Below, one piece after another: positions 7,149-25,960 of a stretch of 38,638 nt of DNA. Where the stretch lies: assembly GCA_030037265.1 (NCBI GenBank), contig JASHRQ010000013.1, forward strand, positions 1 to 38,638, written 5' to 3'. Numbering within the stretch: the first letter of the stretch is position 1; every line of letters begins with the position of its first letter. Origin of the DNA: Thermoplasmata archaeon. GTDB lineage: Archaea; Thermoplasmatota; Thermoplasmata; Lutacidiplasmatales; UBA184. The notes under the pieces were generated by a model, which searched no databases, was not told where the DNA came from, and saw only the letters and a list, made by a program, of their open reading frames with translations. The translations under genes were made by a program, and so were the position numbers.

Positions 7149-7195
7149 GGAGGACCTGCTGGCTCACGGCGGGCAGCCGGGTGCGGGGGGCCGGA

Positions 7196-7227
7196 GTTCC
7201 CGAGGACCGCCGTCGGGGCGGACCTCC
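7196..7227 (-). other. Putative 32-nt intron in the T-loop of tRNA-Leu (about position 59/60)
   Basis: TTCAAA is followed by GGAGGTCCGCC-CCGAC-GGCGGTCCTC-GGGAAC and then T-CCGGC. The insert forms a 10-bp hairpin with one mismatch. The exact splice junction cannot be fixed by eye. Confidence 0.55.
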
Positions 7228-7274
7228 TTTGAACCGGCGCATGCCCTAGGCAACAGGGTTCTAAGCCCTGCCTC

Positions 7275-7302
7275 GGTGGTCCCTCCCGGAAGGCCGGCAG
7301 GA
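7275..7302 (-). other. Putative ~27-nt intron in the D-loop of tRNA-Leu
   Basis: TCCTGCCGG-CCTT-CCGGGAGGGACCAC lies between the D-loop ...GGCCAA and the 3' D-stem GAG. It forms a GC-rich hairpin. Confidence 0.5.
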
Positions 7303-7349
7303 TTGGCCGAGCTGGAGCACCCCCGCGGTCGGACGGCAGGGAGCCCCCC

Positions 7350-7362: not shown

Positions 7363-7469
7363 TAGCCCCGGCAGGAGTTCCGGCCCGGGGACCGTCCCGG
7401 TCCCCGGACGTTCGAACCTGCGTCGCGAGATCCAGAGTCTCGCATGATTGGCCACTACACTACGGGGCT
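7363..7469 (-). tRNA. tRNA-Gln(CUG), 107 nt, with a putative 34-nt intron in the T-loop; CCA not encoded
   Basis: Read on the minus strand: AGCCCCG/CGGGGCT acceptor (the A1:U72 pair typical of archaeal tRNA-Gln) plus A73; D-arm GTGT-AGTGGCCAA-TCAT; anticodon arm CGAGA-CTCTGGA-TCTCG; T stem GCAGG/CCTGC with TTCGAA..(insert)..T. Confidence 0.8.
7376..7410 (-). other. Putative 34-nt intron in the T-loop of tRNA-Gln (about position 59/60)
   Basis: TTCGAA is followed by CGT-CCGGGGACC-GGGAC-GGTCCCCGG-GCCGGAAC and then T-CCTGC. The core is a 9-bp perfect hairpin. Confidence 0.6.
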
Positions 7470-7495
7470 ACGCGGCGTCGAGGGGCGGAGCCGCC

Positions 7496-7502
7496 TCATA
7501 AC
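7496..7502 (-). promoter_or_regulatory. TATA-like box (GTTATGA on the minus strand) for tRNA-Gln
   Basis: About 30 nt upstream of the tRNA 5' end at 7469. It has the same TTATGA core as the tRNA-Leu box. Confidence 0.45.
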
Positions 7503-21672: not shown

Positions 21673-24600
21673 TCAGGACGCTCCCGGCGGAGGAGGCGGA
21701 GGCGGCACGGGCGACGACGACGGCGGGGCGGGGCCCGGCGAGTACTCGGTGAGCGGCCCGGGGGGCGAGCCCGTCGGCGGGGACTTCTTCCGGCGCGTCG
21801 CGAGCACGACGCCGAGGCCGACCAGCACGACGACCGCGACGGCGATCGCCGCCCACTCCGCCGCGCTGAGCCCGCCCGGGAGCGAGGTGGACTTCGAGAA
21901 CGGGACCGTCACCGAGACCGGCGCCCCGTTCACCTCGACCGAGCCGGAGGCGTGGTCCGCGGCGTAGCCGGCGCTGCCGGTCACCCGGTACGAATACGTG
22001 CCGTTCGCGAGCTCGAAGACGATCGGTGGACCGGCCGAGTGCAGGGTCGTCGCGCCGACCCGCACCGACCAGTTCGCCCCCGCCGGTAGGCCCGACTCGG
22101 TGAACGTGACGGCGTAGGTCGTCGTGGCCGGGATCGCGAAGGCGATCGGGAGGCTCTGGTTCCGGTCCGCGTAGACGGACCCCGAGGGCGAGGAGGCCGC
22201 GTAGCCGTCCACCGACGGGATCGAGTAGGCGTACGTGCCGACGAGCGTCACGAACGAGATCGTGCCCGAGCCGCCGAACGTCGTGTTCGTCTTCGCGGTT
22301 CCGTTGAACGTCACGCTCCAGACGGTGTCGCTCGGGAGCCCCGACTCGACGAAGGTCGTCGTGAACGGCACGGCGACGAAGGAGATCGTGACCGTCTGGT
22401 TGGCGCCGGTGAAGTCGACGGCCCCGCTCGGCGGGGTCGGGGTGTAGCCGACGGGCGGGTCCACGACGAACCCGAGCGACGCCGACGGGAGGCTCCAGCT
22501 CGGAATGTAGACGAGCTCCGCCGGGGTCGAGTAGGGGACCGTGGTGAGGGTGAAGCCCCACGTCGTGCCGGCGGGCAGGCCGACCTCGCGGAACTCGAGC
22601 CAGTTCGCGAGGAACGCCGAGTACGGGTGGTCGTCCGCGATGCCCGACGCGATCGCGTAGCTCCCCGTGCCGGACCAATCGGACCAGTAGTTGCCGATGG
22701 CCCCCTCGTCGAAGACGACGTCCGGAGCGCCGGAGACCGCCGCCTGCAGATGGGCGGGGTTCGTGGTGCCGTTGGTGCTCGCCCCGTTGTTCGCGACGAA
22801 GTTGTTCGCGATGACGGTCGCGTCCTCGCCGCCGGTGACCGAGACACCGTAGCCGGCGGAGCTCTCGACGGTGTTCGCGGTCAGCACGACGGCGTCGGTG
22901 TCGGTGAGGTTCGCGCCGAGCGCGTTGCCGAAGAGGAACACCCCGTCGATCGTCGCCGACTCGGTCCGCGTGAGCTGGAGCCCGACCCCGCCGTTCCACT
23001 CGCTGAAGTTCGAGACCGAGAGCACGTCCGTGTCGTTGTCCCACAGCCCGAAGTTGTAGGTGAGGGCCGTGCCGTTCCGCACGGTCGCGTCGACGTCCTC
23101 CAGCGTCGCGACCGCCGTCGTCGGGAACGGACCGGAGCCGCCGGCCGTGGTGAAGTAGTTGCCCGACAGCGCGGTCTCGCTGGCGTTGAAGCCCGAGACG
23201 CTCACGAGCTCGTCCCCCGCGAGCGCCGCGCCCGTCGAGCCGGAGCTCGCCCGCACGTCGGAGACCGTCACCTCGTCGAGGTCCTCGACGAGGACTCCCA
23301 CGGAGAGACCGGAGGCCGTCGAGTTCGTCACGACGGCGTCGTCGCCGTCGAGCCCTACATACCCGATCGAATTGCCGGTCGCGGAGACGTTCGCCACCGT
23401 GGTGTCGTCGGAGTCGAGCACCACGAGCGCGGCGAGCGTTCCGTCGGACGCGCTGACGTCGATCGCGTGGACCCCGTCCCCCTCGGACACCTCGACCTCG
23501 TCGCTCGCGCTCACCGACACGCCGCTCAGGGTGACCGAGTCGCTCAGCGCCACGAGGCCCCCCGCGCTGGCGGAGGCGGCGGAGAGGTCGTCGATCACGA
23601 GGCCATCGAGCTCCTCGAGGTCGACCGCCTCGGAACCCGTGGTCACCGAGTCCCCCGCGATCGTGACGGCGGTGGCGCTCCCGCCGTACACCCCGATCGC
23701 GTCGTCGGAGGCGCTCACGGAGCCGATGGACAGGTCGCTTCCGCCGTCGACGTAGACCGCGACGGACGAGTACCCCTCCGAGTCCAGGCCCGCGGCCGCG
23801 GCGGTGTGGACCGAGCTCCCGACATCGTCGAGCAGGACGGCGCCGAAGGCCCCGGTTCCGGCCGTGACCTGCGAGAAGGCGCTGTCCGTGGAGTTCTCGG
23901 CGATCGCCCCCAGGGAGTCCTGGCCCGTGACGAGCCCGTCGACCGTCGACCCGGTCGTCGCCCAGAACTCCACGGCCGGGATCGGGATCGTCTCGGTCGG
24001 CCCGTACAGGAGGGCGGAGTTCCCGATGACCGACGTGTTGTCGACGGAGAAGAGCCCCGTGCCGAAGTTGAAGAAGTATCCCTGGGTCCAGTACGGGATC
24101 GTGACCGTGTCGACGCGGTCGGTCACGTAGGTGAACGTGGAGGCCGACTGCGTGAACTCATTCAGGTGGACCGAGGCGGAGAGCCCGAACTCGGCGAACA
24201 GCAGGAACGTCGGATACCCGAAGTCGTTCACGTGGCGGAAGGACGGGTCGAGCGCCGCCTGGGCGTCGTCGATCGTGACGGTCGTCGTCCCGGTGTCGTA
24301 GCTCACGCCCGTGGTGCCGGAGGTGCCGAACGCCTCCGCCTGTGCCGCCGAATTGAGGTAGACCGGCGAGGAGAACTCCGCGGCGTCGCCCACGGCCGGG
24401 GGCGTCACGGTGCCGCTGGCCATGATCGCCGCGGTGTACTCGGTGGTGTAGCCGTCGGCCAGGACTTCCGCGACGTACCCGTCGCCGGCGGCGGGGGGCG
24501 GGAGGACCATCGTGGCGGTGCCGGTGGAGTCGCCCGGTGCGTACGAGAAGTTGAGCCGCGAGGCGTTCACGCCGTATTCCGCCGAGAAGGTCGTCTCGTT

Positions 24601-25929
24601 CGTGACGAAGACGAAGCCGTAGTCCGCGGGCGCGACGACCGAGACCGTGATCGACCCCGGGAGGGCGGCCGGCCCGAACGTCGAGTTCGTGGTGTTCCAC
24701 AGCCCGTACATCATCGACGGCCCCTGGCTCAGGTACTCGGTGCCGCCCCCGCCCTCGTAGGTGGCGGCGACGCCCAGCGAGGTCTCCCCCGTGTCGACGC
24801 CGTAGTCGTAGGCGGAGCTCACGTTCTCGTACGCGGAGTTCGCCGAGCTCCACCACTTGAGGCTCGCGGTCCCGTCGAGGCTGACGATGTTCGCGTTCGA
24901 GCCGTCGCCGTTGCCGCCCAGGTCCAGTTCGGCGTCGTTAAACAGGTACCCGGTCGGATTGTAGTGGAATCCGTTCACCTGGAACTGCGGCCGGTGGGCG
25001 AGGGAGGTGACTCCGTTGAACGTCACGAAGTCGTACGAGCCGCTCGAGGCGCAGGAGGAGTCGGAAAGGCTGTAGTTGAAGTAGACTCCGGGCACGTCGG
25101 CGGTGCCGTTCCATACGATCGTGAGGTTGTTGTACAGGTCGAGGTCGAACGGGTAGCTCACGGTGCACGCGGGACCATACTTGTAGTACAGCGGCGAGTC
25201 GAGGGTCCCTGTGTAGTTCTGGAGGGTCCCCGCCTTGAGGTACACCGCGCTGCTCGAGAAGTTCCAGATGTTGTTCTCGAACTGGAGCTCGGTCCCGTCG
25301 AAGTGGACCACGCTCTGGATCCAGAACTCCCCGGTGGTCGACCCCGGGTAGGAGATGTTCGTGGCGACCGTATTCAGCTGGAAGGTCATGTTGTTCGGCC
25401 CGGACTCCCAGTCGGCGTAGCCCGGGTTGTACGCCTCGAAGGACGAGAAGCTCAGCTCCGCGGCGATGCTCGTCGTGTTGAACTCGTACGGACCGTTCGA
25501 GCCGAGACCGAGGTCGGAGATGCCGGTCGGGTACGGGTTGGTGAGGTAACTGGGCTCCAGCGGAGCGCTGGCGGGACGCGTCGCGGGCGCGTCCCGCGGC
25601 AGGAACACACTGGAGGCGTTGAGCTGCTTCTCGGCGATCAGTGCCTGGGCCGCCGTGATCCCTGCGGGTTGGGTCGTCGAGCCAGCGACCGCGGCAGACG
25701 AGACGCGGTCGACCGACGAGAGACCGAACGAGCTGGCGTTCGCGAAGAGGGAACTGCCCGAGGCCGTCGAGGAGGACGAGGCCCCGGGAGCGAGGTCTGT
25801 CGGCCCGTGCGCGGCCGAGGGTGCCCCGGGGATCGCACCGGCGGCGAGCCCCGCGAGACCGAGCGACGAGACCACGAGCACCCACGCGAGCGCGACCGGG
25901 ATCGCCCAAGTCCCCCGGCGACCGAGCAT
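21673..25929 (-). CDS. Giant secreted/membrane-anchored glycoprotein: thermopsin (peptidase A5)-like domain + right-handed beta-helix region + 3 tandem C-terminal modules + TM anchor + poly-Pro tail
   Basis: Signal-peptide-like N-terminus (MLGRRGTWAIPVALAWVLVVSSLGLAGLAAG). NPYPTGISDLGLG, MTFQLNTV, FWIQSVVHF, FENNIWNFSS and NDAELDLGGNGDG parallel the motifs I recall from Sulfolobus thermopsin. Very many N-x-S/T sequons. C-terminal hydrophobic helix followed by RRKK and PPPPPPPP. I prefer ATG 25929 over ATG 25956, which sits inside the TATA box. Confidence 0.8.
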   Translation of the reverse strand: MLGRRGTWAIPVALAWVLVVSSLGLAGLAAGAIPGAPSAAHGPTDLAPGASSSSTASGSSLFANASSFGLSSVDRVSSAAVAGSTTQPAGITAAQALIAEKQLNASSVFLPRDAPATRPASAPLEPSYLTNPYPTGISDLGLGSNGPYEFNTTSIAAELSFSSFEAYNPGYADWESGPNNMTFQLNTVATNISYPGSTTGEFWIQSVVHFDGTELQFENNIWNFSSSAVYLKAGTLQNYTGTLDSPLYYKYGPACTVSYPFDLDLYNNLTIVWNGTADVPGVYFNYSLSDSSCASSGSYDFVTFNGVTSLAHRPQFQVNGFHYNPTGYLFNDAELDLGGNGDGSNANIVSLDGTASLKWWSSANSAYENVSSAYDYGVDTGETSLGVAATYEGGGGTEYLSQGPSMMYGLWNTTNSTFGPAALPGSITVSVVAPADYGFVFVTNETTFSAEYGVNASRLNFSYAPGDSTGTATMVLPPPAAGDGYVAEVLADGYTTEYTAAIMASGTVTPPAVGDAAEFSSPVYLNSAAQAEAFGTSGTTGVSYDTGTTTVTIDDAQAALDPSFRHVNDFGYPTFLLFAEFGLSASVHLNEFTQSASTFTYVTDRVDTVTIPYWTQGYFFNFGTGLFSVDNTSVIGNSALLYGPTETIPIPAVEFWATTGSTVDGLVTGQDSLGAIAENSTDSAFSQVTAGTGAFGAVLLDDVGSSVHTAAAAGLDSEGYSSVAVYVDGGSDLSIGSVSASDDAIGVYGGSATAVTIAGDSVTTGSEAVDLEELDGLVIDDLSAASASAGGLVALSDSVTLSGVSVSASDEVEVSEGDGVHAIDVSASDGTLAALVVLDSDDTTVANVSATGNSIGYVGLDGDDAVVTNSTASGLSVGVLVEDLDEVTVSDVRASSGSTGAALAGDELVSVSGFNASETALSGNYFTTAGGSGPFPTTAVATLEDVDATVRNGTALTYNFGLWDNDTDVLSVSNFSEWNGGVGLQLTRTESATIDGVFLFGNALGANLTDTDAVVLTANTVESSAGYGVSVTGGEDATVIANNFVANNGASTNGTTNPAHLQAAVSGAPDVVFDEGAIGNYWSDWSGTGSYAIASGIADDHPYSAFLANWLEFREVGLPAGTTWGFTLTTVPYSTPAELVYIPSWSLPSASLGFVVDPPVGYTPTPPSGAVDFTGANQTVTISFVAVPFTTTFVESGLPSDTVWSVTFNGTAKTNTTFGGSGTISFVTLVGTYAYSIPSVDGYAASSPSGSVYADRNQSLPIAFAIPATTTYAVTFTESGLPAGANWSVRVGATTLHSAGPPIVFELANGTYSYRVTGSAGYAADHASGSVEVNGAPVSVTVPFSKSTSLPGGLSAAEWAAIAVAVVVLVGLGVVLATRRKKSPPTGSPPGPLTEYSPGPAPPSSSPVPPPPPPPGAS
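21898..22599 (-). repeat. Three tandem ~75-aa protein modules (x-E-x-GLP-x-x-x-x-W ... G-Y ... SG-x-V ... PF) inside the giant glycoprotein
   Basis: LEFREVGLPAGTTWGF.., FTTTFVESGLPSDTVWSV.. and YAVTFTESGLPAGANWSV.. share spacing and motifs. The repeat is at protein level and the DNA copies have diverged. Confidence 0.6.
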
Positions 25930-25947
25930 GCGGAAACGACCGCCCGG

Positions 25948-25960
25948 CCTATACATAAAC
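25948..25960 (-). promoter_or_regulatory. TATA box (GTTTATGTATAGG on the minus strand) for the giant glycoprotein gene
   Basis: Centred about 25 nt upstream of ATG 25929, implying a leaderless mRNA. Confidence 0.45.

Follow-up and report, generated by a model that had tools for sequence, protein, structure and literature searches.

Reviews place the tRNA introns of Euryarchaeota only at the canonical position next to the anticodon, and in the literature we found no report of introns at other positions in Thermoplasmata or Lutacidiplasmatales. A tRNA-Gln(CUG) gene in a Thermoplasmata genome that carries 34 extra nucleotides inside its T-loop raises the question whether it is a functional gene with an intron at an unusual site, and which kind of splicing endonuclease could remove the insertion. 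We analyzed this gene within the window, by which we mean the whole stretch of 38,638 nucleotides in which it lies (72% G+C, and nearly complete in one peat metagenome run). A protein encoded next to it maps to contig JASIBX010000093.1 of GCA_030044915.1, a genome assembled from peat and of Lutacidiplasmatales type. Our main reading, to which we assign a probability of about 0.88, is that it represents the functional gene of the main glutamine-decoding tRNA in Lutacidiplasmatales-type Thermoplasmata, split at position 59/60 by a 34-nt archaeal bulge-helix-bulge (BHB) intron.

The gene and its cloverleaf

The gene lies on the minus strand, where 7469..7363 reads as AGCCCCG-UA-GUGU-AGUGGCCAA-UCAU-G-CGAGA-CUCUGGA-UCUCG-CGAC-GCAGG-UUCGAA-[34 nt]-U-CCUGC-CGGGGCU-A. 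Its parts are:

7363..7469, minus strand: complete tRNA-Gln(CUG) gene (pre-tRNA 107 nt, mature tRNA 73 nt, CCA not encoded)
7411..7469, minus strand: 5' exon, tRNA positions 1-59 (5' strand of the acceptor stem, D-arm, anticodon arm, 5' strand of the T-stem, T-loop U54-A59)
7435..7433, minus strand: anticodon CUG, within the loop CUCUGGA
7377..7410, minus strand: 34-nt intron CGTCCGGGGACCGGGACGGTCCCCGGGCCGGAAC, pre-tRNA positions 60-93 (from the sequence, the minimum free energy fold and the comparison of 10 genomes)
7363..7376, minus strand: 3' exon, tRNA positions 60-73 (U60, T-stem CCUGC, acceptor CGGGGCU, discriminator A73)

The acceptor stem, AGCCCCG/CGGGGCU, has 7 bp, and its first pair, A1:U72 (the A at 7469 with the U at 7364), is typical of archaeal tRNA-Gln, where it serves recognition by GatDE. 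In the D-arm, G10:U25, U11:A24 and G12:C23 are paired while U13:U22 is unpaired. An earlier note on this DNA had described a tRNA-Gln(CUG) with a 34-nt insertion in the T-loop, and all the details that it gave (A1:U72, GUGU-AGUGGCCAA-UCAU, CUCUGGA, UUCGAA, U-CCUGC and the same 34 nt) are found in the minus-strand sequence.

Removal of the intron (7410..7377) leaves a 73-nt tRNA-Gln(CUG) whose cloverleaf, as drawn by ARAGORN, is without flaw; its T-stem has 5 bp and its T-loop reads UUCGAAU. The spliced 73-mer also has all the nucleotides that are universal in tRNAs (U8, A14, G18G19, U33, U54U55C56 and A58) and the pair G53:C61. Against a profile built from 95 intron-less archaeal tRNA-Gln(CUG) genes, taken from the matches listed in a search whose pattern fixed A1, the spliced form scores 69.4 bits over positions 1-73, and the unspliced form 56.5 bits with a match covering positions 1-59 only. 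Detection after intron removal had been named beforehand as a test of the gene's identity, and both the cloverleaf and the full-length profile match answer it positively. The closest intron-less gene among the matches listed is identical to the spliced 73-mer at 67/73 positions. Taken over the fold, the cloverleaf, the profile match and the recurrence of the same interrupted gene in at least nine other genomes, the similarity to tRNA exceeds chance by far. In seven open reading frames (ORFs) of the window, CAG outnumbers CAA by 45:5 and makes up 90% of the sampled glutamine codons, which identifies the CUG isoacceptor as the main glutamine decoder.

The splicing motif in the T-loop

The unconstrained minimum free energy (MFE) fold of the 107-nt precursor retains the acceptor stem, the anticodon stem and the T-stem, and forms a BHB motif with both flanking helices (hBHBh') around the exon-intron junctions. 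Its elements, all read from this fold, are:

7371..7421, minus strand: hBHBh' splicing motif
7421..7417 with 7375..7371, minus strand: helix h, the 5-bp T-stem
7412..7410, minus strand: 5' bulge AAC (A58, A59, C60)
7416..7413 with 7382..7379, minus strand: central 4-bp helix (U54-A91, U55-G90, C56-G89, G57-C88)
7378..7376, minus strand: 3' bulge ACU (A92, C93, U94), beside the T-stem
7409..7398 with 7394..7383, minus strand: helix h', the 12-bp hairpin of the intron (pre-tRNA positions 61-72 with 76-87)

The fold has an energy of -56 kcal/mol (z = -3.4), and no shuffled sequence reached equal stability. Relaxed motifs are recognized by a missing or abnormal bulge or by an absent flanking helix; here two 3-nt bulges, a 4-bp central helix and both flanking helices are found, so that the junction is, as modeled, a strict 3-4-3 hBHBh' motif. 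For canonical introns, which are spliced at 37/38, the central helix contains the first two bases of the anticodon (PMC4090602). This geometry implies a cut after the second bulge nucleotide, and applying it here gives predicted cuts after 7411 and after 7377, that is, between A59 and C60 and between C93 and U94, with the intron at 59/60. These cuts are consistent with both variable bulge positions among the genomes compared below (60 and 93) lying inside the intron. The exon joint expected after excision reads ...GGUUCGAA/UCCUGCCGGGGCUA (...GGUUCGAA/UCCUGCC...). The earlier note had proposed a T-loop position of about 59/60 as a non-canonical intron site, and 59/60 is indeed among the documented sites (PMC4090602). 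We also considered whether the intron could act as a guide RNA, and rejected this: as read from its sequence it has no C/D box motifs, and so does not resemble a box C/D guide like that of tRNA-Trp.

The strictness of the motif bears on the enzyme. The α4 and α'2 endonucleases accept strict 3-4-3 motifs, which α4 and α2 enzymes in fact require, and only relaxed motifs need the broad-specificity types (PMC3239211), so no broad-specificity endonuclease is required for this junction. According to this published enzymology, the junction as folded should be cleavable by any type of archaeal splicing endonuclease, and our explanation of the gene is independent of the type that the host encodes. The further claim of the earlier note, that splicing at this site calls for an enzyme able to handle relaxed BHB motifs, therefore finds no support in the strict motif of the unconstrained fold.

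Conservation of the gene and its locus

A degenerate pattern of the 5' half, with A1 fixed, was searched against archaeal species-representative genomes and returned at least 120 tRNA-Gln(CUG) genes. Among the matches listed they divide as follows:

95 genes: uninterrupted
8 genes: interrupted near the anticodon only, including the Thermoplasmata/Methanomassiliicoccales metagenome-assembled genomes (MAGs) L010, L061, L079 and L087
4 genes: T-loop insert after UUCGAA in DPANN-type or unclassified MAGs (L004, L018, L092, L117)
9 genes: 34-nt T-loop insert of the window type in Thermoplasmata/Thermoplasmatota MAGs with 65-70% G+C (L015, L019, L067, L089, L093, L102, L104, L110, L112)
4 genes: cut off by the end of the contig (L017, L040, L081, L120)

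Comparison with related genomes had been proposed as a check in the earlier note, and the insertion proves to be conserved, at the same position, in at least nine relatives. One of these, L019, is AcS13-54, an isolate placed under Ca. Lutacidiplasmatales in Table 1 of Sheridan et al. 2022, a paper in which introns are unmentioned (PMC9287336).

The window and the nine relatives with the 34-nt insert align without gaps. Across these 10 genomes the exons differ at only 2 of 73 columns (9 and 19), with 57/59 positions invariant in the 5' exon and all of them in the 3' exon. The intron has 34 nt and the same site in 10/10 genomes; its ends are conserved (CG.C... and ...CCGRAAM) and its interior is about 70% identical (0.70) and forms different hairpins. 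The BHB is the unconstrained MFE structure in 8/10 orthologues, and with the cloverleaf and the BHB imposed together the energies of all 10 differ from the MFE by -1.3 to +8 kcal/mol. Over the 10 genomes, pairing is complete (100% of cells) in the central helix and reaches 90% in the first three pairs of h', and among the bulge columns only 60 and 93 vary. Within the paired columns, U55:G90 becomes U:A in three genomes, and the intron pair 62:86 occurs as C:G, U:A or U:G. These are the only changes, one pair having both partners replaced and the other a single partner, and neither rises above shuffled controls. Covariation is thin because the exons hardly vary, and the case rests on conservation of the architecture rather than on covariation statistics. 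From these comparisons a strict BHB intron appears to be fixed at the T-loop position across the Lutacidiplasmatales-type order.

The length of the intron is constant at 34 nt in the ten genomes despite the divergence of its interior, and three additional contigs from environmental samples have indels relative to the window that balance one another. A tentative reading of this constancy is that the intron, once excised and perhaps closed into a circle, is under some constraint.

Introns at other sites occur in the same tRNA. The Thermoplasmata/Methanomassiliicoccales genomes L010, L061, L079 and L087, two of them high in G+C, have 37/38 introns of 20-25 nt in tRNA-Gln(CUG) and lack the T-loop intron, and a 37/38 intron is absent from all ten genes with the T-loop intron. 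The two kinds occur in separate genomes, which suggests mutually exclusive intron positions for one tRNA in sister lineages. In the four DPANN-type or unclassified MAGs, inserts of 10-30 nt directly follow UUCGAA, and two of these genes also have an intron in the anticodon loop; 59/60 looks like a recurrent insertion site for tRNA-Gln(CUG) in unrelated lineages.

Two further features of the locus recur with the gene:

7496..7501, minus strand: TATA-like box TTATGA, preceded by CAAC, 27-32 nt upstream of tRNA position 1
7182..7326, minus strand: tRNA-Leu(UAG), 36 nt downstream of tRNA-Gln, with inserts in the D-loop (28 nt) and in the T-loop (32 nt)

The TATA-like box is the only A/T-rich patch upstream, and a (C)AAC(G)TTTATCA-like motif is found in all nine relatives, at 25-32 nt upstream across the ten genomes; it is likely the archaeal promoter of tRNA-Gln. 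The tandem of tRNA-Gln and tRNA-Leu(UAG) is present in 10/10 genomes with a spacing of 27-36 nt, and the spacer has no conserved TATA-like box, from which we infer that the two genes are probably co-transcribed. The neighboring genes for a metallophosphatase, a Ribo_biogen_C protein, DeoC and a transporter also recur in the relatives, at 45-79% amino-acid identity. An orthologous locus with neighbors this divergent indicates that the intron is older than a deep divergence in the order and has since been retained. Elsewhere in the window, a 1427-aa ORF (21673-25956, minus strand) combines a thermopsin domain with NosD/beta-helix repeats located after it; from its sequence it looks like a large secreted acid protease, which would fit an acidophilic Thermoplasmata host.

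The D-loop insert of tRNA-Leu has 28 nt in 9/10 genomes and its T-loop insert 32 or 35 nt; the latter likewise follows UUCRAA, at the same position as in tRNA-Gln, with a similar end (...GGAAC/U). Read from the sequence, the fourth pair of its central helix would be an A57:G mismatch, and this motif may be less strict than that of tRNA-Gln. CTA, for its part, is a rare codon in the window (2/372 leucine codons in seven ORFs). The mean identity between the T-loop inserts of tRNA-Gln and tRNA-Leu is 0.64 within the same genome and 0.65 between different genomes, as against 0.70 for orthologous inserts. The near equality of the first two values gives no sign that one intron was recently copied from the other, and the likeness of the inserts is what shared T-loop sequence, the BHB requirement and base composition would impose.

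On this basis the following pathway can be proposed. Judging by the conserved motif, transcription would start from the TATA-like box about 30 nt upstream and would probably include tRNA-Leu(UAG). In the precursor, T-loop nucleotides U54-G57 are predicted, from folding and conservation, to pair with CGGA near the 3' end of the intron, so that the strict 3-4-3 hBHBh' motif would form between the T-stem and a GC-rich hairpin. The endonuclease EndA would then cleave both 3-nt bulges behind their second nucleotide (A59/C60 and C93/U94, as expected from the BHB rule), and an RtcB-type ligase would presumably join the exons to restore the T-loop UUCGAAU. T-loop modification and docking with the D-loop would be expected only after splicing.

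Alternative readings, the endonuclease and known systems

Annotation programs do not recover the gene in this form. ARAGORN, run on the raw window, reports by default an uninterrupted 74-nt tRNA-Gln at 7397..7470, and one could take this as the real gene, with no intron. Its acceptor and T arms are mismatched, however, and the Rfam tRNA model gives it a partial match of 19 bits against a gathering score of 29. The prediction is a miscall that takes the CCGGGG of the intron for an acceptor strand. The intron string CCGGGGACC on which it relies is not conserved among the relatives, in contrast to the genuine 3' exon, which is the same in all of them. The comparative data refute this version, and we give it practically no credence. 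Run on the window with its gathering and E-value thresholds, Rfam finds only a tRNA-Ala, and tRNA-Gln is absent from its output. Automated annotation of such MAGs may give wrong coordinates for tRNA-Gln, and since default finders miscall or miss the gene, the main tRNA-Gln can seem to be absent or defective in genomes of this order, which is abundant in acid soil and peat. Genomes of the Lutacidiplasmatales type therefore need intron-aware annotation.

A second alternative takes the insert as a scar, the remnant of a mobile element or of an integration event, in a decaying pseudogene, with the work done by another, uninterrupted tRNA-Gln gene. In its favor one can cite the RNA data, although they say little either way: in Logan contigs from 12 runs (metatranscriptomic, RNA-labelled or unlabelled) the gene occurs only in unspliced forms with genomic flanks, and no exon joints are present, in libraries that capture mature tRNA poorly and may contain DNA or precursors. 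Nevertheless, the exons are almost invariant although identity between the proteins on either side is no higher than 45-79%, the insert always has 34 nt at the same site with the BHB kept, the promoter box is conserved, and CAG is the dominant glutamine codon. The uninterrupted form that this reading calls for was unseen in a scan of 241 million metagenome records: the 28-mer of the spliced junction was found in 45 contigs, none of which has the 5' half of the window's tRNA-Gln. These contigs are mostly low-GC archaeal tRNA-Gln(UUG) genes, with some tRNA-Gln(CUG), tRNA-Met-, Glu- and Phe-type genes; two metagenome contigs with 63-67% G+C (L148 and L150) carry a tRNA-Met type with a CAT anticodon and the identical 28-nt 3' half of T-arm and acceptor stem. 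In the peat DNA runs X1-X3, the summed contig depth over 7409-7472, in the 5' exon, is 200-300 compared with about 13 for the window flanks, which indicates that the sample holds numerous relatives, strains or species, whose introns differ. The contigs there break at the exon-intron boundary, and no intron-less contig was found in these runs; over four DNA runs the contigs contain no spliced joint. We consider a pseudogene very improbable, and regard this as almost certainly a real, conserved and functional intron-containing tRNA gene, as judged by sequence comparison.

The remaining alternative accepts the intron and holds that its BHB is only relaxed, so that the lineage must have a broad-specificity endonuclease, either (αβ)2 or ε2 with the specific loop. 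A published generalization links off-position introns to broad-specificity EndA (PMC4090602, PMC5829648), and the A:G mismatch read for the fourth pair at the T-loop junction of the adjoining tRNA-Leu points in the same direction. Against it, the tRNA-Gln motif is a strict 3-4-3 whose two flanking helices each have 3 bp or more, in the MFE fold and in the ten orthologues. Homologues of EndA were searched with the M. jannaschii enzyme (identical to PDB 1A79 over all 171 residues) and then with a five-sequence alignment of the α'2 type. The Thermoplasmata-labelled homologues retrieved, none of which is tied to an intron-bearing genome, are all of about 350 aa, with two repeats in the order N-C-N-C, and thus of the α'2 type. 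Eight homologues, all two-repeat proteins of about 350 aa, come from genomes with 57-64% G+C, from JBHIDH or from genomes of uncertain placement, and none was linked to the intron-bearing clade; JBHIDH corresponds to L087, where tRNA-Gln carries the 37/38 intron. EndA is absent from the window and the nine related loci, the search being confined to these loci. Overall, we think it very unlikely that the motif is a relaxed one that demands such an enzyme.

Under our main reading, a strict BHB in the T-loop, the intron is of a known kind (a 59/60 BHB intron, as in ARMAN-2) in a placement unusual for its archaeal branch, and its mechanism is not new. The interest of the gene rests on its lineage, Thermoplasmata, which traditionally belong to Euryarchaeota, and not on mechanism. 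A strict BHB at the T-loop shows that intron position and motif strictness are separable, and the tRNA-Gln precursor offers a simple substrate for asking whether narrow-specificity endonucleases are indifferent to position. More tentatively, at somewhat less than even odds, the tRNA-Gln intron may be part of an order-wide pattern in which several essential tRNAs of Lutacidiplasmatales (here Gln and the doubly interrupted Leu) contain off-position introns that must be spliced out, with relatives that encode a plain α'2 enzyme without the specific loop. If true, this would break the textbook rule that ties off-position and multiple introns to broad-specificity EndA only, and would provide a natural system for finding out whether intron position, apart from BHB strictness, matters to α'2 enzymes.

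The nearest known system is Candidatus Micrarchaeum acidiphilum ARMAN-2, which has a strict hBHBh' at 59/60 in pre-tRNA-Pro(GGG) and a relaxed 13-nt intron at 59/60 in pre-tRNA-Cys(GCA) (Fujishima et al. 2011, PMC3239211). The two share the T-loop position, a strict 3-4-3 motif (in tRNA-Pro) built from T-loop nucleotides and the intron, and a splicing pathway that relies on protein enzymes. They differ in lineage (DPANN versus Thermoplasmata), in the tRNAs concerned (Pro and Cys versus Gln) and in the intron, which here is longer, at 34 nt, and of fixed length across the order. The EndA of ARMAN-2 is an ε2 enzyme with the specific loop. The lineages with off-position introns reviewed in PMC4090602 resemble it in having introns outside 37/38, including 59/60, and tandem or multi-intron tRNA genes (compare tRNA-Leu) that default finders miss; in contrast to the strict motif in a traditional euryarchaeote found here, their EndA is of the (αβ)2 type and bears the specific loop of Crenarchaeota, and the motifs of many of their introns are relaxed. 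The 37/38 introns of tRNA-Gln(CUG) in other Thermoplasmata match in tRNA, class and BHB type, but lie in the anticodon loop rather than in the T-loop.
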